A DNA stretch of 53,605 nt from Actinomycetota bacterium (GCA_041158245.1 JBEBBT010000134.1:1-53605), one strand, 5' to 3'; shown: positions 33,572-44,374, counted from the first letter of the stretch. Notes: generated by a model not told the origin, from the letters alone. Numbers and translations are program-made.

Positions 33572-34963
33572 ATGGAACTCATGAATTCTCAAGAGTTTCA
33601 AGAAGACCATAGAAAAGTAGAAGTCTTGCAATTGCGAGACTTCTACTTTTCTTTATCTACAACTCCATGGGAAAATCAAGAAAATCTTCACTTAACTGAA
33701 TTTCTGCGAGTCCTCAATCATTCAAAGAGATCTCCTTGGTGGAATGAACGACTCAAGAATCTCGTTATTGATGAATCTTCCCTTGCCGCTGCTGTTAAGT
33801 CATTACCGCTCTTGACTCGCGAGCTCGTGCAAGAAAACTCGTTACCGATGCAGGCTTTGATTCCAAACAGCTCACGTGAAGACTATGCCCTACAAAAAAC
33901 CTCAGGATCTACATCTAAGCCGATTCAACTAATCAAACACCTGCCGACGTATTTCAAAGAGCAAGATGCAATTGCTTTATTGGAATGGCAATGGCAGAAA
34001 AGAAGTCCAAACGGGATATTTGGCGCTTTCCGGCTTGGAGTCAAGGACCGCGACAATGTGGAAGTTGCACCTCCATATTCGTACGTTGGCGTAAAAGAGT
34101 TCGCATTTCAACGTTCATCGGTTGATGCATCACCAGAAGAACTTCTGAATGCAATCGCAATCTTTAAACCGAACTATTTACTGACAAATCCCGTCTCACT
34201 TCGGCTGGCTATACATGAGCAACTACGCAATCCCCGGGAGATCTACAAGATAGAGCAGATTCTGACACTTGCTGATCGAGTTGACAGTTCTCTTCGCGAG
34301 CTCGCTCGCGAAGTCTTCGGTGCAAAGATTGTTGATCGATATTCCTCTGTTGAATTCGGAAACATCGCAATTCAATGCCCAGTACACGAACACCTGCATG
34401 TGGTTGCCCCAAGTGTTTTCGTAGAAATTCTTGATGAAAATGACCAACCCTGTGAAATTGGTCAACCTGGTCGGGTAGTAATAACTGGCTTACATGCATT
34501 CGCAAATCCACTGTTTCGTTACGAACAAGGTGATATCGCGCAGTGGGGTGAGCCTTGCGATGCCGGAATTACCTGGCCTGTTATTGATGAGGTCCATGGC
34601 AGGGTTCGAACAGTTTCTAGTGGGCCTGACGGAAAAGACCGACTGATCACTCTGTTTGGTGCGGACTTCATGCTTATTCGCACAATTGTCGACTACATGG
34701 TTGTGAAGTTTTCGGATTCAGTGGCATTCATTGCTCAAGTGCGCGAGCCATTAAGCTTAAGCGAACAAGATCGAATACGAAAATCTATGGCTGATGTTTT
34801 TAGACAAGAAGTAGATGTTCATTTCAAAATCACAGGCGAATCAATTGGTGAGCGAACTTACAAAGCAGCAGAGCTTTTTGTAGTGGACCAGCTTTTCAAT
34901 CCCGACTGGAATATCGCACAAATCAAAGAAGTTGTTTCTAACACTCCTCAAAGGTTCTTTTAG
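33572..34963 (+). CDS. Adenylate-forming enzyme, phenylacetate-CoA ligase/CapK/F390-synthetase-like
   Basis: 463 aa. KTSGSTSKP (compare SSGTTGKP of the PaaK family), YSSVEFG and RYEQGD motifs. It lies 8 nt downstream of the preceding gene. Confidence 0.6.
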   Translation: MELMNSQEFQEDHRKVEVLQLRDFYFSLSTTPWENQENLHLTEFLRVLNHSKRSPWWNERLKNLVIDESSLAAAVKSLPLLTRELVQENSLPMQALIPNSSREDYALQKTSGSTSKPIQLIKHLPTYFKEQDAIALLEWQWQKRSPNGIFGAFRLGVKDRDNVEVAPPYSYVGVKEFAFQRSSVDASPEELLNAIAIFKPNYLLTNPVSLRLAIHEQLRNPREIYKIEQILTLADRVDSSLRELAREVFGAKIVDRYSSVEFGNIAIQCPVHEHLHVVAPSVFVEILDENDQPCEIGQPGRVVITGLHAFANPLFRYEQGDIAQWGEPCDAGITWPVIDEVHGRVRTVSSGPDGKDRLITLFGADFMLIRTIVDYMVVKFSDSVAFIAQVREPLSLSEQDRIRKSMADVFRQEVDVHFKITGESIGERTYKAAELFVVDQLFNPDWNIAQIKEVVSNTPQRFF

Positions 34964-35027
34964 CCCTAAAAAGGTTTGGAAGGTCAAGAACCTCACAAAG
35001 ATTAAGTTGGGAGTAAAGTCAGCCCAC

Positions 35028-36893
35028 GTGTCTAATAGTTCGAAAGCTTCAGTAGGTATTCCCGCTCTCACATTTGGCGCTTTAGGCGTTGTTTATGGCG
35101 ATATCGGAACCAGCCCGATTTACGCATTAAAAGAGTCCTTAGCGAACGCTGGTACCGTCCAGAGTGAAGTGTTTGGGGTCGTCTCGCTACTTTTCTGGTC
35201 GCTGATGATTGTGGTCACAATCAAATACCTACTTTTTGTTCTTAGAGCTGACAACAATGGCGAAGGCGGAATCCTCGCCCTCTTTTCTCTACTACCTGCC
35301 AACATTCGCCGGCCCTCTAAGAGACTGAACATCACTATCTTTGCCTTAATGCTGCTCGGTACAGCCTTACTTTTTGGTGATGGTTTATTAACTCCCGCTA
35401 TTTCAGTTCTGTCTGCAACCGAAGGTCTTGCAACACTTAATCCAGAGCTCGGTGAATTAGCAGTTCCATTGACTATTGCAATCTTGATTGCCCTTTTTAG
35501 TTTTCAATACAAAGGCACCGAATCACTAGGAAAAGTTTTCGGTGTTGTTATTTTGATTTGGTTCACAGTGATTGGTTTATTGGGGCTCCGTGCGGTACTC
35601 GAAGTTCCAAGTGTGGTTGGTGCTCTATCCCCAACCTACGCGATTCAATTCATTTCTTCCAATGGCTTTCATACATTCATAATTATGTCGTCAGTAATTC
35701 TGGCAGTCACGGGAGCCGAAGCCCTGTATGCCGATCTTGGTCACTTTGGTGTGAAACCAATTCGCATCGGATGGTTCTTCATTGTGGGCCCGTGCCTTGT
35801 TTTGAATTATTTAGGCCAAGCGGCTCGAATGATGCAAAATCCAGAGAATCGCGAAAACCTATTTTTTAGTTTGGCAGAAAGTTCTACTGAAAAAGTTTTA
35901 CTTATCGCGATTGCAACTCTGGCAACAATTATTGCGTCCCAAGCACTAATCAGCGGTGTCGCATCCCTTGCACGTCAAGCTTCTCAGCTGGGACTATTCC
36001 CACGCGTCAACATTGTGCATACGAGCGAGAATCATGCAGGCCAAATCTACGTCCCAGCAATCAACACGATTCTTGCAATTGGCTCAATATTCCTAGTTAT
36101 CAATTTCAAAACTTCTTCTGCACTTGCACATGCCTATTCGTTTGCAATCACTGGTACGATGCTGATTACCACTATTGCATTTTCCATAATTGCTCTACAC
36201 CGATGGAAGTGGAATAAGTTAAGTGTCATCGCGTTTGTCTTGATTATTGGCACATTGGACGCGGTCTTTTTCCTATCTTCAGTAACAAAAATCTTGCACG
36301 GCGCTTGGGTCCCACTTCTAATAGCAATTGGCGTGGTTTACTTGATGTGGGTGTGGCGCAAAGGGCAGAACGTTTTGTCACAAAACCTGCGCACCAAGGG
36401 AAAGACCTGGCAGTGGCTTGAAGAAAGCGTCATTAGTGGTGAAGTGATTGAGACTGAATCTCTCGGCATCTTCTTATCCGCATCGCCAGACACAGTGCCG
36501 CAGGCCGCAGTGGCACAAGTACAAAATTTGCAAGCAATACCGCATCGAATGATCATCACCACTGTCGTAACAGACGATGTGCCATTCTCCACTAGAGCAC
36601 CTGAAATCAAGCAAATAAATAATCGAGCGAAGCTAGTTACGATTTATTGTGGTTTCATGGAATCACCAAATATTCCAAAAGCTCTCATTTCTTGCTGCAT
36701 CGATGCTGAAGTAGAGAAATCAGCAACTTATTTCTTGTCTGATCGAAAATTTGTTGGCCTTGAGAGTGGCGAACTTCAGGGTAATGCCGAAAAAGTATTT
36801 TCCTTCTTGCATCGAAACTCTGCAACTGCAGCCCACTATTACGGACTGCCACAAGAGAGAGTAATCACCCTCGCTGTGCAAATGGATCTATAA
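35028..36893 (+). CDS. kup: KUP/HAK/KT family potassium transporter
   Basis: GALGVVYGDIGTSPIYAL, 12 TM helices and a cytoplasmic C-domain. The start is uncertain (GTG 35028, TTG 35007 or TTG 34932); none has a strong SD. Confidence 0.85.
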   Translation: MSNSSKASVGIPALTFGALGVVYGDIGTSPIYALKESLANAGTVQSEVFGVVSLLFWSLMIVVTIKYLLFVLRADNNGEGGILALFSLLPANIRRPSKRLNITIFALMLLGTALLFGDGLLTPAISVLSATEGLATLNPELGELAVPLTIAILIALFSFQYKGTESLGKVFGVVILIWFTVIGLLGLRAVLEVPSVVGALSPTYAIQFISSNGFHTFIIMSSVILAVTGAEALYADLGHFGVKPIRIGWFFIVGPCLVLNYLGQAARMMQNPENRENLFFSLAESSTEKVLLIAIATLATIIASQALISGVASLARQASQLGLFPRVNIVHTSENHAGQIYVPAINTILAIGSIFLVINFKTSSALAHAYSFAITGTMLITTIAFSIIALHRWKWNKLSVIAFVLIIGTLDAVFFLSSVTKILHGAWVPLLIAIGVVYLMWVWRKGQNVLSQNLRTKGKTWQWLEESVISGEVIETESLGIFLSASPDTVPQAAVAQVQNLQAIPHRMIITTVVTDDVPFSTRAPEIKQINNRAKLVTIYCGFMESPNIPKALISCCIDAEVEKSATYFLSDRKFVGLESGELQGNAEKVFSFLHRNSATAAHYYGLPQERVITLAVQMDL

Positions 36894-36897
36894 GCTC

Positions 36898-37758
36898 TTA
36901 AGAGAGAACATCTTTTCGATCAAACTTTAAGACCGCCCACGTAACAAAAACCGCAAAGAAGATCAGGGCGTATGAGGATCCTCGAGCCATCTGGGTCCAG
37001 TCGATAGAACCTTCAAGAGCATCAGTCCATGAACGCGAATAGTGGCTTGGCAACCATTCGCGAATTCCACCAAGAGCCTCAATTGCATCAAGAATCTGGC
37101 TGATAATCGCAATCATCACCGCGGTACCAACGGCACCGAGTGGCACATCCGTAGATACGGACATCAAGAATGCGATTCCAGAAGTAAATAGCAGTGTAAT
37201 TCCAATATAGAACGCGATGATTGCAATTCGTTTCCAAGCTTCGCCTGATTCGTAAATCCCTCCGAGTGGATTTTGCAATCCAGAGTTACCAAATGCCAGC
37301 AAGCCAATTAAATATGAGGCAATGACCAACACCGCAAGTGACGCAAAACTTAAAGTTAAGCTCACTGAAAGTTTGATCATAAGCAGTCGCCGACGGGGTA
37401 CAGGTGAGGCGAGTAGATAGCGAAGTGTCGACCATGATGCTTCGCTTGCCACACTATCTCCGGTAAATAGCGCAAAAACAGTGGTCAATAAAAAGCCTGA
37501 ACCAAAAAGCAACATCACAAGTGTGAAATTGAATGCGCCATTTGTTGCCAAGCCAATCAGATTTGCACTTCCACTTCCGAAATTTCCGCCAGAGTCTCCA
37601 CTACCTCCAGACGATGGTCCAAATTTCACCGCGGCCACCACAATCAAAGGCAAAGCAATCATCAAAAGAAATGAAACCAATGTTCTCCGACGCTTTATTT
37701 GCCGCTTCATTTCTACTTTGTATGGAAGTGTTTTATTGGCACGATAAGAATTTGTCAT
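36898..37758 (-). CDS. ABC-2 type transporter permease
   Basis: 286 aa, 6 predicted TM helices, and a Gly/Ser-rich first external loop. Its ATG overlaps the stop of the upstream NBD-containing gene (ATGA). Confidence 0.7.
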   Translation of the reverse strand: MTNSYRANKTLPYKVEMKRQIKRRRTLVSFLLMIALPLIVVAAVKFGPSSGGSGDSGGNFGSGSANLIGLATNGAFNFTLVMLLFGSGFLLTTVFALFTGDSVASEASWSTLRYLLASPVPRRRLLMIKLSVSLTLSFASLAVLVIASYLIGLLAFGNSGLQNPLGGIYESGEAWKRIAIIAFYIGITLLFTSGIAFLMSVSTDVPLGAVGTAVMIAIISQILDAIEALGGIREWLPSHYSRSWTDALEGSIDWTQMARGSSYALIFFAVFVTWAVLKFDRKDVLS

Positions 37759-40220
37759 GATGATTTTCCAATCGTCAAATCTTCACCGACTGCATCTAGG
37801 AAGAAATCTTCCAGTCGCATGTTTTTGCGTCCAGATAGCAATTCATCAACTTTGCCCATAGTTACAAGCTGACCACGATGCATGACAATCACGTGCGAAC
37901 AAGTTTGCTCAACTTCACTAAGCATGTGAGATGAAACAATCACTGTTCTGCCAGATTCGGCGTACTTGTGTAAAACATCACGCATTTCGCGAATCTGTGG
38001 TGGATCAAGTCCGTTGGTAGGTTCATCGAGTAGCAAAAGTTTTGGCATTCCGAGCATGGCCTGTGCAATTCCTAGCCGTTGGCGCATACCCTGAGAATAG
38101 GTGCGAACTTTTCTTTCAACTGCCGTTCCTAGGTCAGCAATCTCGAGGACAACCTCATATTGAGGATCTCCAGAGCGACCACTTGCGCGCCAGAAAAGTT
38201 CAAGGTTTTCGCGTCCTGATAGATGAGGTAAAAACCCTGCGCCTTCGACCAAAGCTCCGATGTTGGCAAGCGCCGCATTCCCACTGCTAATGCGATGTCC
38301 AAATACGTAGACATCACCTTCGGTTGGCTGGATTAGGCCCATAACCATTCGCATTGTGGTGGTCTTACCAGCACCATTCGGACCTAGTAGGCCAATCACT
38401 TTGCCAGCCGGGATTTCCCAGGTCACATCATTTACGGCTCGAAAGCCATTTTTAAATTCTTTTACTAAGCCTTCAATGCGTAGCGGAGTCTCTTCCAATT
38501 CTTTACGGAATACATCTGCTGACTTCTTAGGTCGTTTGAAATGAACGAGCACAGCCAGGAACAAGATCAGAGCAAGAGCTCCAAAAAACCAAACGGCTCC
38601 CGATACTTCAGAATTAACGAGTCGAAGCTGAACTTTCGGGACCATCAACTCGCTATCGATTAAGTCAACTAAATAAGTGTTTGATTGTTGTGGTAGCCGG
38701 TAAGCAGAGTCGGTCGTGGTGATGACCAGCTGGATTTTGTCACCAGGATTTAGTGCTGCCGAGATGGCAGGAAGTGAAACCTCAAACTCTTGAGGAGTTG
38801 CACTCACATTTTCGATTCGGAACGCTGAAACCAAACCATTCGGAAAAATCGAGCGACCACCGTCACGAACAATTCGAAGCGAAGCGAAGAAAACTGCTTC
38901 GGGTGCTGGTTTGAGCGATGAGATCGCAACTGAAATTTTGCTAGACCCAACTAAATCCAATTTTGATTTCAAGACTGAAGTTTCAAAAACAGCGCCTTGA
39001 TTTGGTAAAACTCTGCCCAGCAAAGTTGCGGCACTTCCAAGTCCTGGAAGTATCGTGATGTTTGCCGGTACCCCGCCTGAAGGCGCAATTACCCGCTGAG
39101 GGTTACCGTCAAGTTTGAAAGATTCAAAATCATCAAATGTTGGGATTTCCTTAGTTTGATACAACTCAATCGAAACATTTGAATTATTTCCAACAACTGC
39201 ACCCTGAGTCCGGCTTACTTCAAACCCGGTTATTGCCTTCTCTTTCTTGAACAAAAAAGCGTTAAACCAAGACAGTATTTCAGAATTCAGTCGGTCACTT
39301 TCACTTACTCCACCATCATGACCACCTGCGTGCCAAATGAGTTTTAGAGGAGTTTTTGGATGTGCATCCTTGATTTGATTAGCGGTACTAAGCGCTTGAT
39401 CAAAAGGAAAAAGTGAATCGGCTTGCCCTGCCATCAAAAGGGTTGGGATATTGATGTTTTTGGTAACAGAGATTGGAGATGATGCAAACATCAAAGCTTT
39501 TGAGGCAGCACTTAGCGGTCTTCCTGAAGTTGCTTCTTGATAAGCCAAACACCATTCAATGCTGAATCGGCCACATTCATTAATAAGTTTTGGTGGGGTA
39601 GCCATTCCAACACTGAAGAAGTAGCCAGTCCACATTTCTTTAAATACGCCAGCGGAATTTGTTTCTGCTGACTGATTAAAAAGTGAAGTTTCTAGATTAT
39701 TCCATGTGATGTCAGCAGCGACTGCATCTATTCGTGAATCTTGGCCAGCTAATAACAGTGAAAGCGCACCGCCATAACTCCCACCAGCAACGCCAACCAA
39801 AGGATCGTTTTTCTTATCCCTAATTACAGCTTTTTGTTTTCCAAGATAGTCAACCAAAGCTTTTGCATCTGCAATCTCAAATTGCGGTGAGTTCATGCTG
39901 ATTGGCGCAATTGTCTTTCCAAAGCCACGTGCAGAAAAAGTCAAAACAACAAAACCATTTTCTTGAAGCTGTTGAGCCTGCCCATTTAGGGATTCTTTAC
40001 TGCCTCCGAATCCGTGCGCCAAAATTACGGCTGGGGCGGGAGTAGTTTCTGGCAAAAAGACTTTTGCATCAATCAAAACCGGCGTTGGATTACTAGCAGA
40101 AGTTGGTCCACCCGAAACTGAGATTTCCTTGGTTTTTTGGCCTTCAGCTTTTGCAGGCGCTGCAAATGAACTAAGCGCCAAAACAGCAAGCAAGAAAACT
40201 AAAACCAGGTGCTTTTGCAT
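37755..40220 (-). CDS. Fusion protein: signal peptide + CocE/NonD (S15)-type alpha/beta hydrolase + single TM helix + ABC transporter ATP-binding domain
   Basis: Signal peptide MQKHLVLVFLLAVLALSSFAAPAKA. Hydrolase motifs are HGFGGS, GGSYGG, GQADSLF and WHAGGHDGG. The TM helix is encoded at nt 38541-38600. The NBD has GPNGAGKTT, YSQGMRQRL, LLLLDEPTNGLD and SSHML. Confidence 0.75.
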   Translation of the reverse strand: MQKHLVLVFLLAVLALSSFAAPAKAEGQKTKEISVSGGPTSASNPTPVLIDAKVFLPETTPAPAVILAHGFGGSKESLNGQAQQLQENGFVVLTFSARGFGKTIAPISMNSPQFEIADAKALVDYLGKQKAVIRDKKNDPLVGVAGGSYGGALSLLLAGQDSRIDAVAADITWNNLETSLFNQSAETNSAGVFKEMWTGYFFSVGMATPPKLINECGRFSIEWCLAYQEATSGRPLSAASKALMFASSPISVTKNINIPTLLMAGQADSLFPFDQALSTANQIKDAHPKTPLKLIWHAGGHDGGVSESDRLNSEILSWFNAFLFKKEKAITGFEVSRTQGAVVGNNSNVSIELYQTKEIPTFDDFESFKLDGNPQRVIAPSGGVPANITILPGLGSAATLLGRVLPNQGAVFETSVLKSKLDLVGSSKISVAISSLKPAPEAVFFASLRIVRDGGRSIFPNGLVSAFRIENVSATPQEFEVSLPAISAALNPGDKIQLVITTTDSAYRLPQQSNTYLVDLIDSELMVPKVQLRLVNSEVSGAVWFFGALALILFLAVLVHFKRPKKSADVFRKELEETPLRIEGLVKEFKNGFRAVNDVTWEIPAGKVIGLLGPNGAGKTTTMRMVMGLIQPTEGDVYVFGHRISSGNAALANIGALVEGAGFLPHLSGRENLELFWRASGRSGDPQYEVVLEIADLGTAVERKVRTYSQGMRQRLGIAQAMLGMPKLLLLDEPTNGLDPPQIREMRDVLHKYAESGRTVIVSSHMLSEVEQTCSHVIVMHRGQLVTMGKVDELLSGRKNMRLEDFFLDAVGEDLTIGKSS

Positions 40221-40253: not shown

Positions 40254-40616
40254 TTATTTTCGCAATATCTTTTCCATAGCTCGGCCCTTGGCGACTTCGT
40301 CAACCAATTTGTCGAGCATACGGATTTTCTTCATTAAGGGATCTTCGATTTCTTGGATTTTTACACCACAAATCATGCCGGTTATAAGTTCGGAATTCTG
40401 GTTAACTTTAGCCTTTGCAAAGAAATCTTCAAAAGTTGTTTCAGCCTTAAGATGCTTAAGTAATTCTGCTTTGGTGAAACCAGTGAACCAAAGAATCACT
40501 TTGTCTAAATCAGCTTTGGATTGACCTTTTCTTTCAACCTTAGCTACATACAGAATGTAAACCGAGTTGAAACTCATTTTGAATATTCTGCTCAATTCTT
40601 CACGACCCTTTGACAA
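40254..40616 (-). CDS. DUF2200 family protein
   Basis: RIFKMSFNSVYILYVAKVERKG... is typical of DUF2200. TTG 40616 gives about 120 aa, the usual family length; the track ORF extends to 40664. Confidence 0.6.
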   Translation of the reverse strand: MSKGREELSRIFKMSFNSVYILYVAKVERKGQSKADLDKVILWFTGFTKAELLKHLKAETTFEDFFAKAKVNQNSELITGMICGVKIQEIEDPLMKKIRMLDKLVDEVAKGRAMEKILRK

Positions 40617-40676
40617 TTTAATGCTTTTAGATACCGAGTCTAGGCATAAATGAGTTTTGCTCAATAGTCTTGTGCC

Positions 40677-42015: not shown

Positions 42016-43200
42016 TTAGTTGTACACCGTTCCGTGTCCATTAACTTTGTAGACGCGAACGTAATCAATATAAGTTTTTGATGTTGTCCAGTTGCCCCAG
42101 AGGCCGCCGAAGCCACCACCTATTGGACCGATTGCATTGTTCAAAATCAAGAAGTATGGCTTGTTTCCTGGCCAAATCATGCCGTCGATGTTGTCTTTAG
42201 TAACTGTCCAAAAAGCAACTCGATCAACGTAAAGCGTCATCTGGTCTGGAGTCCATGCCAAACCAAATGTGTGGTAATCCTCGTAGAAGTTGTAAGACTT
42301 TGTCGTTTCGCCAAATTTATAGAAGTGGCCACCACCGCCATCTGCGTAGTGCAATGCAGCTGAGTTTCGTTTTGGTTGGTGTCCACCTTGTTCAGCAATA
42401 TCCATTTCACCAGAACGCGGCCAACTTACGCTTGTGATGTCTTGGCCCAGCATCCAAAATGCCGGCCAGTTGCCTTCGCCTTGTGGCATTTTTATTCGCG
42501 CCTCTATGTATCCGTACTTAAAGTTGACTTTGCCTTGTGTATCAAAACGACCACTCGTAAATGCACAGTTTGCGCCTAAACATGTTGCAGGTGCTGGAGG
42601 GGCTGAATTAACTCGAGTTGTAGTAATGACGGCTTTGCCGTTTTCAACTGAAATGGCTTCAGGGATGTACCACTGTGATTCGTTGTTGTGGCAAGTGCCA
42701 CCACCATTAGCACCACTATGACCGCAGTAGCGAGCCGTCCAATTGTCGGTATCAATCGAGCTTCCGGCATTGAATTCGTCAGACCAAATCATGTTGCCAA
42801 CTGTGAATCCTCCAGAAATTTCGGGTGTTATTTCAGATTCTGGCTGAGCAGGTGTTGTTATCAATCGTGTGACAGTCTTGACTCGATAGTCCTTGGAAGT
42901 CTGACGTAATTGAAATCTATAAGTGGTTTCGCCTTCAAGGCCCGTGATTTGGATCGGGCTTTTCAAAGTCTTAGTCCAATTGCGACCATCAATTGAATAA
43001 TGGATTGCTCGAATAAGTTTTGATTTTGCAGTGTCTTTTTTATATTTGACAACTATCTTGTCATGAGAGGGAGCACTGACCTCAATGATTGTTGGTGCTT
43101 TCAATTTTGCTGTGTATGGAGCAAGAGCAGTAGAAGGAATAGTTGCAAGCACAGAAAATAAAGCAACTAGAGTCAACAAGAATTTAATTTTCATTTTCAT
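42016..43200 (-). CDS. Secreted GH16 glycoside hydrolase (beta-1,3-glucanase/laminarinase-like) with N-terminal Fn3/Ig-like domain
   Basis: Signal peptide, then WSDEFN, WPAFWMLG and the catalytic GEMDIAE (ExDxxE). Confidence 0.8.
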   Translation of the reverse strand: MKMKIKFLLTLVALFSVLATIPSTALAPYTAKLKAPTIIEVSAPSHDKIVVKYKKDTAKSKLIRAIHYSIDGRNWTKTLKSPIQITGLEGETTYRFQLRQTSKDYRVKTVTRLITTPAQPESEITPEISGGFTVGNMIWSDEFNAGSSIDTDNWTARYCGHSGANGGGTCHNNESQWYIPEAISVENGKAVITTTRVNSAPPAPATCLGANCAFTSGRFDTQGKVNFKYGYIEARIKMPQGEGNWPAFWMLGQDITSVSWPRSGEMDIAEQGGHQPKRNSAALHYADGGGGHFYKFGETTKSYNFYEDYHTFGLAWTPDQMTLYVDRVAFWTVTKDNIDGMIWPGNKPYFLILNNAIGPIGGGFGGLWGNWTTSKTYIDYVRVYKVNGHGTVYN

Positions 43201-43284: not shown

Positions 43285-44244
43285 CTAGGAGACCTTCACC
43301 TTTGTTGAGTCACTGAACACGACGGTTGAGCCGCCTTCATTTGTTGCAGTAACACGAACACGGATGAACTTGCCCTTTTGAGCAGCCTTAAGAGTTAGCT
43401 TCTTTGCTTTTGCACCCTTGATTGCAGAGCAATCAGATGGTTGTGCAGAAGGATTGTTTGTGCCCTTCTTTGTGCAAGCAAACCAGCGGTAGGCGATAGT
43501 TTCTTCACCTTGTCCTGAGAATGCGTATCCCTTTGCAGTTAGAACTTTTCCAACCTTTACAGAACCGCTGATAGCAGGGTTCTTGGTCTTGACTGGAGCA
43601 GAAACTAGAGAAGGCAGTTCGGCACCATTGAGACCAATGTTGTCGATTGCATAAATCTGACCTGAAACCGCTTCAGTACCGCTTGCTGCTGATCCGAAGT
43701 TTGGAATCAAAACAACTGTTACGTAGTCAACATCTCCATTTAGATCAGAGAGTGTTTGGGTGTAGCGATTCCAGCCTGGAGCAGCATCAAAAGAAATTTC
43801 CTTGTTGATGTTTGGGTCTGCTGCTTCAACCTTTAGCAAAACGCTAACGTCATCAGCTTCTGGTGAATATAGATCGAATTCGATAGTTGCTGATGTGCCA
43901 GTTGAGACTCGGCGATCATCAAATTTTGCAAGAACTACACCAGACCATGCCTGACCATTCTTTGGCAAAGCCAAAACTTTTCCTGAAGCGCCATCAATTG
44001 TGCTTCCGTCAACGATTGCTGAAACCATTCCTTCGAATGAACCTTGTGGGTCACCATCTGCATTTGTTCCGGCAGCGTCTGCACCAATTGCATCGCCATC
44101 TTCGAATGTGATTAGTGTTTCAGTCGCAGGCAATGTGTTTGCAGCTGATGCTGGATTAATTGCGACAAGTGCGCCCGCGCCAACAAGTGACAAAGCGCTA
44201 AGTAGAGCGAAGAACTTTGTTCCTAGCTTTGTTGTTTTAGCCAT
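43285..44244 (-). CDS. Secreted protein: CBM-like beta-sandwich domain + C-terminal Ig-like domain, unknown function
   Basis: The start is moved to the internal ATG at 44244 (GGAAGGA SD), giving the signal peptide MAKTTKLGTKFFALLSALSLVGAGALVAINPASA. The ...GQIYAIDNIGLNG ending is typical of CBM4/9-like modules. The Ig-like repeat has the pattern AYRWF...GKFIRVRVTA. Confidence 0.55.
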   Translation of the reverse strand: MAKTTKLGTKFFALLSALSLVGAGALVAINPASAANTLPATETLITFEDGDAIGADAAGTNADGDPQGSFEGMVSAIVDGSTIDGASGKVLALPKNGQAWSGVVLAKFDDRRVSTGTSATIEFDLYSPEADDVSVLLKVEAADPNINKEISFDAAPGWNRYTQTLSDLNGDVDYVTVVLIPNFGSAASGTEAVSGQIYAIDNIGLNGAELPSLVSAPVKTKNPAISGSVKVGKVLTAKGYAFSGQGEETIAYRWFACTKKGTNNPSAQPSDCSAIKGAKAKKLTLKAAQKGKFIRVRVTATNEGGSTVVFSDSTKVKVS

Positions 44245-44310
44245 TGGTTTCCTTCCAAAGAGGCCGAATGAATTTTGGTCGTGCTCACACACGTAGGCGA
44301 AAAATAGCCC

Positions 44311-44374
44311 TGAAAGCGGTTTTATGGAAGCGGTTTCACGAGCCAAAATTGCATGTGTTGTGAAACCGTTATCA
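44311..44374. promoter_or_regulatory. Three copies of a 14-bp CG-centred palindrome (putative LacI-type operator)
   Basis: tgaaagCGgtttta (44311-44324), tggaagCGgtttca (44325-44338) and tgaaacCGttatca (44361-44374). Confidence 0.5.

Follow-up and report, generated by a model that had tools for sequence, protein, structure and literature searches.

Our main finding is that a single gene in a 53,605-nucleotide stretch of DNA from an Actinomycetota metagenome-assembled genome (MAG; JBEBBT010000134.1, the whole stretch being referred to below as the window) encodes both an ATP-binding cassette (ABC) ATPase and a hydrolase predicted to lie outside the cell. In order along the chain, the protein consists of a signal peptide, a CocE/NonD-type alpha/beta hydrolase, a PepX_C beta-sandwich, one transmembrane (TM) helix and a complete ABC ATPase. 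Together with the ABC-2 permease gene that overlaps its end, this fusion gene is a self-contained two-gene module, widely conserved in Actinomycetota. The domains are all of known kinds: what is new is the arrangement, that of an ATPase subunit crossing the membrane into an enzyme predicted to be extracellular. A preliminary description of the window had proposed these five parts, in this order, on one 821-aa open reading frame (ORF), and the ORF list, Pfam and translation agree with it, the signal peptide being recognised by inspection. All motif coordinates of the fusion protein were re-derived from its translation and are collected in Table 1. As that description had stated, the stop codon of the fusion gene and the start codon of the permease gene share an ATGA, which can be read directly from the sequence at 37758-37755 (junction ggaaaatcatcATGAcaaat), so that the fusion gene is coupled in translation to the permease gene.

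The window's fusion protein is deposited as a hypothetical protein of the MAG, but a search of 5.8 billion proteins recovered more than 120 full-length homologues, about 805-890 aa long and 50-99% identical, all with the same Pfam combination. Moreover, the hydrolase and the Walker A, signature and Walker B motifs stand in one ORF in 70 out of 70 complete genome loci, finished chromosomes included. The preliminary description had pointed to a break in the frame, or an assembly artefact joining two genes, as a danger to its reading; the continuity of the ORF in these independent homologues and complete loci excludes both.

Three Pfam models that had been suggested as a check, Peptidase_S15, PepX_C and ABC_tran, all match this one protein. 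The Peptidase_S15 match (PF02129, residues 48-301) scores 45.5 bits against a cutoff of 23, and Abhydrolase_1 and several general alpha/beta-hydrolase models match as well; that of PepX_C (PF08530, residues 407-515) scores 24.5 bits against 22.5. The beta-rich module of about 200 aa noticed earlier thus corresponds to the PepX_C-like beta-sandwich, as both Pfam and the AlphaFold2 (AF2) model indicate. Residue conservation was assessed in an alignment of 68 fused proteins, with ectodomain identities reaching as low as about 35%. The catalytic triad had been described as intact on the strength of the motifs GGSYGG, GQADSLF and WHAGGHDGG. This stands, Ser148, Asp268 and His301 being invariant in all 68 along with the Tyr and Gly residues that flank the serine, with one refinement: of the two histidines of WHAGGHDGG, the first (His297) is variable, so that the catalytic residue must be the second (His301). 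In addition, Ser148 aligns with the nucleophile region of the enzyme PaL and with that of an MHETase-like enzyme.

The AF2 model of the ectodomain is confident (predicted local distance difference test score, pLDDT, 91; predicted template-modelling score, pTM, 0.92) and consists of an alpha/beta core with a helical insertion, followed by the C-terminal beta-sandwich. Foldseek places it closest, among solved structures, to the PaL lipase (8yzn/8yzo; 505 residues, TM-score 0.73, 19% identity), for which we use the depositors' name, searches for its identity having yielded nothing usable, and which may be a menthyl-ester lipase of Pseudomonas alcaligenes. Further fold matches are cocaine esterase, SACOL2612, alpha-amino-acid ester hydrolases (AEH) and PepX, the CocE, AEH and PepX folds giving TM-scores of 0.60-0.71. 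By sequence, the nearest solved proteins are the MHETase-like enzyme, PaL, the PET46 esterase and dienelactone-hydrolase-like enzymes. As the nearest relatives in both sequence and fold are esterases and lipases and not proven peptidases, esterase or lipase chemistry is predicted to be at least as likely as that of an X-Pro peptidase.

The ATPase half appears equally intact, as had been noted from its motifs. Its nucleotide-binding domain (NBD) is matched by ABC_tran (PF00005, residues 596-736) with 101 bits, and the Q-loop and D-loop were located in addition to the motifs for which conservation was scored, namely Walker A, Walker B, signature and H-loop. Walker A Lys619, Walker B Asp732-Glu733 and signature Ser709 and Gly711 are invariant in the 68 fused proteins, and H-loop His765 is found in 67 of them, the remaining one having a gap at that column. 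With both sets of residues invariant, a dead hydrolase or a dead ATPase is very unlikely, and both halves are probably under selection as enzymes. The closest sequences in the PDB are the NBDs of ABCA3, ABCA4, ABCA1 and ABCA7 (E 1e-60 to 1e-54), followed by NosF, the nearest bacterial one (E 2e-44), TM0544 and Rv1218c. No NCBIfam model reaches its cutoff on the fusion protein: the NBD matches, all far below cutoff, are to lantibiotic protection (TIGR03740, the best, with 189.3 bits against a cutoff of 309.75), DrrA, GldA and PmtA/PmtC.

That the fusion is an artefact, two genes having been joined by a frameshift or mis-assembly, or that its hydrolase is a dead binding module, is in our estimate extremely improbable. 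Errors of this kind do exist, since one homologue (P0128) is frameshifted right after the TM helix. Against them stand the same unbroken ORF in all the independent sequences and complete loci cited above and, for the dead module, a triad, oxyanion motif and nucleophile elbow without exception in 68 proteins; we therefore regard this explanation as refuted by the comparative data. In P0128 itself (630 aa), the NBD is apparently translated out of frame beyond the TM helix, with SGCSGPTARARRPRCGWCSAC replacing GLLGPNGAGKTT, and the sequence is either a frameshifted pseudogene or contains a sequencing error.

The permease is recognised in Pfam by ABC2_membrane_2 (35 bits against a cutoff of 27.2) and also by ABC2_membrane_4. 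It has no NCBIfam match at E <= 0.01 and no significant sequence relative in the PDB, where the best of eight matches at E <= 1 has an E-value of 0.085; a structural model and a fold search were therefore needed. The AF2 model (pLDDT 73) shows an N-terminal amphipathic helix (residues 13-22) followed by six TM helices, with a Gly/Ser-rich TM1-TM2 outer loop that is disordered in the model. Its nearest folds in Foldseek are NosY (in NosFY and NosDFY) and PmtCD, then ABCH, ABCG2, ABCA1 and KpsM, with TM-scores of 0.45-0.60, which are modest because the model is only moderately confident. There is no FtsX or MacB_PCD match from Pfam in either protein of the module, nor any type VII transporter among the 50 permease fold matches listed. 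From sequence and model, then, the transporter half is classed as a type V (ABC-2) ABC machine and not as type VII. The preliminary description had likened the system to FtsEX, LolCDE and MacB, a comparison that is not supported in that form; given a six-helix ABC-2 permease with NosY and PmtCD folds and a NosF-like NBD, the right comparators are NosDFY, PmtCD and ABCA/ABCG.

Four independent lines of evidence point to a hydrolase outside the cell and an ATPase inside, as had been anticipated. By inspection, the leader of the window's protein has n-, h- and c-regions and an AKA/E cleavage site, and the N-termini of homologues likewise all have a brief basic stretch and a hydrophobic core ahead of a small-x-small site (such as AKA/E, AIA/K or ARA/D). 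The TM helix lies exactly where it had been predicted, at nucleotides 38541-38600, and is directly followed by FKRPKKSADVFRK, where a run of 13 residues contains six Lys/Arg, in keeping with the positive-inside rule; homologues have an RPR-rich stretch at the equivalent place. In a crude hydropathy scan of the 70 complete loci, most showed both a hydrophobic segment at the N-terminus and a TM segment preceding the NBD, about seven having one of the two below threshold. Cys216 and Cys224, eight residues apart in the lid region, are as expected of a predicted extracytoplasmic disulfide.

Unfused relatives offer a further view of topology. A HMMER search with the ectodomain only, against 1.84 billion cluster representatives, gave 2911 matches, 249 of them below 1e-30, comprising fused and unfused proteins. 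Among the unfused ones, some (P0182, P0199, P0236 and P0250) carry a sortase signal (LPATG or LAETG, a hydrophobic stretch and a basic tail), some (P0143, P0152, P0233 and P0235) end in a plain C-terminal TM anchor, and some (P0198, P0210, P0214 and P0237) are without any anchor. Sortase-signalled, TM-anchored and anchorless forms together indicate that the ectodomain family consists of cell-surface or secreted hydrolases, while the NBD must be cytoplasmic. The predicted orientation, enzyme outside and ATPase inside, is thus well supported by the leader, the basic flank, the cysteine pair and the unfused relatives.

The geometry of the junction is equally constrained. In the AF2 model the last predicted strand of the beta-sandwich ends one residue ahead of the TM helix, with no flexible outer linker. 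Across 55 fused loci, 37-49 residues (median 42) lie between the conserved TTD motif of the beta-sandwich and the point where the TM helix begins; in the fused loci a median of 52 residues separates the end of the helix from Walker A. For the four anchored unfused relatives measured, the TTD-TM spacing is 55-61 residues in three and 37 in P0233, and several such relatives have visibly low-complexity linkers. The short and constant spacing implies that the fused ectodomain sits very close to the membrane surface, at an unvarying distance, as one expects if its position relative to the permease matters. Two length variants were seen among the fused loci. One, from Nonomuraea fastidiosa (L056, 7911-10844), has about 180 residues between TM helix and Walker A, versus the median of 52, which suggests an inserted cytoplasmic domain; the other (L072, 7833-10787) has, judging from its length and the position of Walker A, an apparent C-terminal extension past the NBD.

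The distribution of the module was examined by a genome scan with one genome per species. As the preliminary description had proposed, genomes were searched for the same architecture: a relative was found in at least 230 species, and the best 80 loci served for the analyses of gene neighbourhood. These 80 include Nanopelagicales, Ilumatobacteraceae and Acidimicrobiaceae (class Acidimicrobiia), Streptomyces, Kitasatospora, Rhodococcus, Williamsia, Saccharopolyspora, Lentzea, Blastococcus, Geodermatophilus, Nonomuraea, Actinomadura and Herbidospora, so that the fusion spans two classes of Actinomycetota. With a simple ORF picker, the permease homologue was the next gene downstream in at least 54 loci, and in most of them the 4-nt overlap was the same; all-against-all clustering of the ORFs within 6 kb found it downstream in 69 of the 80. 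It is the sole conserved neighbour: no other family occurs in more than 16 of the 80 loci in this clustering. We also looked for a split form, with an anchored hydrolase beside a separate ATPase, and found none: there are no ABC genes near P0152, P0143 and P0199, the contig of P0233 being too short. Judging by these three neighbourhoods, the link to a transporter exists only as a covalent fusion, and the hydrolase fold as such needs no transporter.

We propose that the module works by what may be called 'extract and cleave', the most likely mechanism in our view, to which we would grant not quite an even chance. Two copies each of the fusion chain and of the permease would make up the complex, so that a pair of hydrolase domains would sit directly on top of the permease dimer, at its outer face. 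The ABC-2 core would spend ATP on lifting an amphipathic or lipid-like molecule from the membrane and would hand it to the tethered esterase or peptidase, by which an ester or amide bond would be hydrolysed at the exit. Extraction is proposed because most of the fold relatives do so: PmtCD acts on phenol-soluble modulins, ABCA and ABCH on lipids, and ABCG on sterols. Several points weigh against this mechanism. The coupling of ATPase and hydrolase activities is deduced from comparative data alone; the unfused hydrolase relatives work without ABC genes nearby in the three neighbourhoods; no co-conserved gene within 6 kb in the 80 loci hints at a substrate; and the permease model has a pLDDT of 73, its fold matches having TM-scores of 0.5-0.6 and E-values of about 1e-3. 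Moreover NosDFY, the closest solved complex, reportedly transmits a conformational change and does not transport, which favours the principal alternative.

This alternative is ATP-gated catalysis without transport, a mechanotransmission like that proposed for NosDFY; we consider it unlikely, though a serious contender. Binding and hydrolysis of ATP would shift the TM helix and the outer loops of the permease, opening or closing the lid or active site of the hydrolase, so that an extracellular enzyme would be switched on and off from the cell interior. The nearest solved relatives of NBD and permease, NosF and NosY, belong to a complex that bears a periplasmic protein on its permease; the linker-free junction of beta-sandwich and TM helix and its constant spacing are as expected for the transmission of force, and the ATPase motifs are strictly conserved. 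Yet genuine extraction or export is what the other near relatives (PmtCD, ABCA, ABCG and ABCH) perform, one TM helix makes a poor lever if it is not packed tightly against the permease, and the unfused relatives give no sign of needing regulation. It might also be asked whether the fusion provides co-localisation only, anchoring a surface hydrolase or equalising amounts, with two mechanistically independent activities. Relatives of the same hydrolase are indeed anchored otherwise, by sortase signals or a simple TM tail, and anchoring is thus a recurrent need; but an ATPase domain is a costly anchor, the fusion, permease partner, spacing and ATPase motifs are jointly conserved over very distant Actinomycetota, and the split form is not seen near three unfused relatives, all of which makes this explanation rather improbable. 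Quite improbable, too, is a special case of extraction and cleavage, self-protection against membrane-active peptides or lipopeptides, which the core would remove in the manner of LanFEG or Pmt and the hydrolase would destroy. What suggests it is that TIGR03740, the best NCBIfam match of the NBD, is a lantibiotic-protection ATPase, that PmtA and PmtC match too, and that PmtCD is among the top structural matches of the permease. However, the TIGR03740 score (189 bits) is far under its cutoff, no lantibiotic, two-component or biosynthetic genes are conserved nearby, and a module found in lineages as unlike as Streptomyces and the freshwater Nanopelagicales speaks for a role in general housekeeping.

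Among solved complexes, NosDFY is the closest. It comprises the NosF ATPase, the ABC-2 permease NosY and the periplasmic NosD, and belongs to the assembly pathway of nitrous-oxide reductase. Like the module, it has a type V core that bears a sizeable extracytoplasmic protein on its outer face (7o0y, 7o0z, 7qba and 7znq); NosF is the nearest bacterial NBD in the PDB by sequence and NosY the top fold match of the permease. Its ATP use reportedly drives the outer protein and does not serve to transport a solute. Unlike the fusion's outer domain, a serine hydrolase covalently tied to the NBD via an extra TM helix, NosD is a separate beta-helix protein and no enzyme is fused to the ATPase; nor are there nos genes near the window locus, or a conserved third gene in the 80 loci. 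PmtCD, of the Staphylococcus phenol-soluble modulin exporter PmtABCD (6xjh and 9q2n), is also type V and second among the permease folds (TM-score 0.56-0.62), and the NBD's NCBIfam matches include PmtA and PmtC, though with scores far below the family cutoffs. It handles amphipathic, membrane-active molecules, but has no fused or associated hydrolase. ABCA transporters (ABCA1, ABCA3, ABCA4 and ABCA7) provide the best NBD sequence matches and have a type V membrane domain under a large extracellular domain, which receives extruded lipid. This is a non-enzyme domain inserted between TM1 and TM2 of the same chain, whereas in the module the outer domain is followed by one additional TM helix, and a protein of its own provides the six-helix permease.

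On the hydrolase side, the CocE/NonD family (MEROPS S15; cocaine esterase, AEH, PepX and SACOL2612) and PaL share with the ectodomain an alpha/beta hydrolase with helical insertion and C-terminal beta-sandwich (TM-score 0.60-0.73), the G-x-S-Y-x-G elbow, the Ser-Asp-His triad, and Peptidase_S15 and PepX_C matches above the cutoffs. They differ in that identity is only 11-19%, that an HGFGG oxyanion motif and a conserved pair of cysteines mark the fusion family, and that none of the PDB matches is fused to an ATPase. Characterised members of the CocE/NonD family are, as far as is known, soluble proteins. What type VII systems (MacB, LolCDE and FtsEX) have in common with the module is the concept of cytoplasmic ATP hydrolysis driving work across the membrane; their permease, however, is of the four-helix FtsX type with a large periplasmic domain within it, between TM1 and TM2, and the outer domain is on the permease or a separate partner, never on the ATPase chain. 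The term mechanotransmission was coined and defined for this class (PMC10094684). Of recorded oddities, the one that comes nearest is TCDB 3.A.1.145 (e.g. Myxococcus Q1D520; PMC3924187), an uncharacterised system in which an M1 aminopeptidase is joined to an ABC-2 permease and which likewise has a peptidase-type hydrolase on an ABC-2 transporter polypeptide. Its enzyme is a zinc M1 peptidase, placed C-terminally on a permease of 13 TM helices in another phylum, as opposed to a serine hydrolase at the N-terminus of an ATPase subunit.

How ABC ATPases perform work across the membrane is an active question, the studied cases being NosDFY, MacB, LolCDE, FtsEX and Lpt. To our knowledge, the outer component in these cases is a separate protein or a part of the permease, and the output is hard to measure. 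Where a triad enzyme and the ATPase share one chain, as in the fusion, their ratio is fixed at one to one, and there would be a built-in readout, the rate of hydrolysis versus nucleotide state. The module is therefore a possible natural test of coupling between ATP use inside the cell and chemistry outside, and it is very widespread in Actinomycetota, among them the genetically tractable Streptomyces and Rhodococcus. A bolder proposal, which we put forward tentatively as a minority possibility, is that of an 'ATP-gated ecto-enzyme', the first ABC system in which a membrane-spanning ATPase polypeptide bears an extracellular catalytic domain and cytoplasmic ATP turnover directly controls or feeds hydrolysis outside. 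If this were true, conservation from freshwater Nanopelagicales to Streptomyces and Rhodococcus would mark a core, unrecognised envelope-maintenance function of Actinomycetota, one possibility being the removal and destruction of membrane-embedded lipid or peptide species.

The preliminary description knew of no characterised member of this family. Full-text literature searches in several wordings likewise found no paper on it, and no curated family model names the fusion, database names being generic. The few named homologues, from Actinomycetota and Nanopelagicales, are called 'alpha/beta fold hydrolase' or 'ABC-2 type transport system ATP-binding protein', and RefSeq lists the Streptomyces orthologues as 'alpha/beta fold hydrolase' beside 'ABC transporter permease'. 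A whole conserved function is thus hidden under generic names, with an architecture that would surprise an ABC specialist and that is both widespread and directly testable.

Table 1. Features of the fusion gene and of the permease gene (window coordinates; residues refer to the fusion protein unless a length is given)
Feature	Residues	Coordinates	Strand	Basis or remark
Fusion gene	821 aa + stop	37755..40220	minus	ORF list, Pfam, homologues of same architecture
Sec-type signal peptide MQKHLVLVFLLAVLALSSFAAPAKA, followed by E	1-25	40146..40220	minus	inspection only
Alpha/beta hydrolase catalytic domain	26-325	39246..40145	minus	Pfam Peptidase_S15 + Abhydrolase_1, AF2, Foldseek
HG oxyanion motif	His69-Gly70	40011-40016	minus	invariant 68/68
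Nucleophile elbow GGSYGG	146-151	39768-39785	minus	Ser148 codon 39777-39779
Triad Asp	Asp268	39417-39419	minus	invariant 68/68
Triad His	His301	39318-39320	minus	invariant 68/68
Cysteine pair	Cys216, Cys224	39573-39575, 39549-39551	minus	both invariant 68/68
PepX_C-like beta-sandwich	326-540	38601..39245	minus	Pfam PF08530, AF2 secondary structure, constant TM spacing in 55 loci
TM helix GAVWFFGALALILFLAVLVH	541-560	38541-38600	minus	hydropathy score 2.63
Basic cytoplasmic linker FKRPKKSADVFRKELEETP	561-579	38484..38540	minus	translation
ABC nucleotide-binding domain	580-821	37758..38483	minus	Pfam ABC_tran, PDB relatives
Walker A	613-620	38361-38384	minus	translation
Signature YSQGM	708-712	38085-38099	minus	translation
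Walker B + catalytic Glu, LLLLDE	728-733	38022-38039	minus	translation
D-loop		38004-38015	minus	translation
H-loop	763-767	37920-37934	minus	translation
ABC-2 (type V) permease	286 aa	36898..37758	minus	Pfam, AF2 model, Foldseek

Beyond the module, neighbours differ from lineage to lineage. In about 10-16 Streptomyces and Kitasatospora genomes (e.g. L076, L078 and L080), genes for an aldehyde dehydrogenase, a thiamine pyrophosphate (TPP) enzyme, a KduI/IolB-family protein and an amino-acid permease lie upstream; these genes suggest an inositol-catabolism-like cluster, and their position seems to reflect lineage synteny and not a functional link. In a freshwater actinobacterial lineage (the P0116 loci, L081-L083), a DUF4349 gene (203 bits; 7065-7991 in L081, plus strand) precedes the fusion gene by 10 nt in the same orientation; it is absent from the window and from the other locus checked. 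Another lineage that was checked shared no neighbour beyond the module. Three records that carry the module have taxonomic labels that look wrong: two environmental MAGs are labelled 'Bifidobacterium breve' and one record 'Bacillus sp. AZ43 (UNVERIFIED_ORG)' (L002, L009 and L040), and their copies score alongside those of uncultured Actinomycetota MAGs or of Blastococcus.

In the window, the genes around the module are unrelated to it: they encode a DUF2200 protein, a nitroreductase, a GNAT acetyltransferase, a secreted GH16 protein and, convergently, a Kup potassium transporter. A scan of the locus for promoters and terminators gave nothing above shuffled expectation. The DUF2200 gene (40254-40664, minus strand; 161 bits) has the same orientation as the fusion gene, ends 33 bp upstream of it and may share its transcript; DUF2200 is not among the families that recur beside the module in the 80 loci. 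As its Pfam match begins at residue 26 of a TTG-initiated ORF, the true start is probably the Met at residue 29. Further upstream, the GH16 glycoside hydrolase (42016-43200, minus strand) has an N-terminal hydrophobic leader and an extra N-terminal region of about 150 residues, and the adjacent gene (43285-44346, minus strand) encodes a 353-aa protein, also with an N-terminal hydrophobic leader, that has no Pfam match at E <= 0.001. On the other side, a 463-aa protein with a weak, sub-threshold AMP-binding match (33572-34963, plus strand) has a 32-nt overlap with the ORF of the Kup transporter. This ORF is TTG-initiated (34932-36893, plus strand) and is convergent with the permease gene, the two lying 4 bp apart with no terminator-like site; as its Pfam match begins at residue 46, the real start is probably further downstream.

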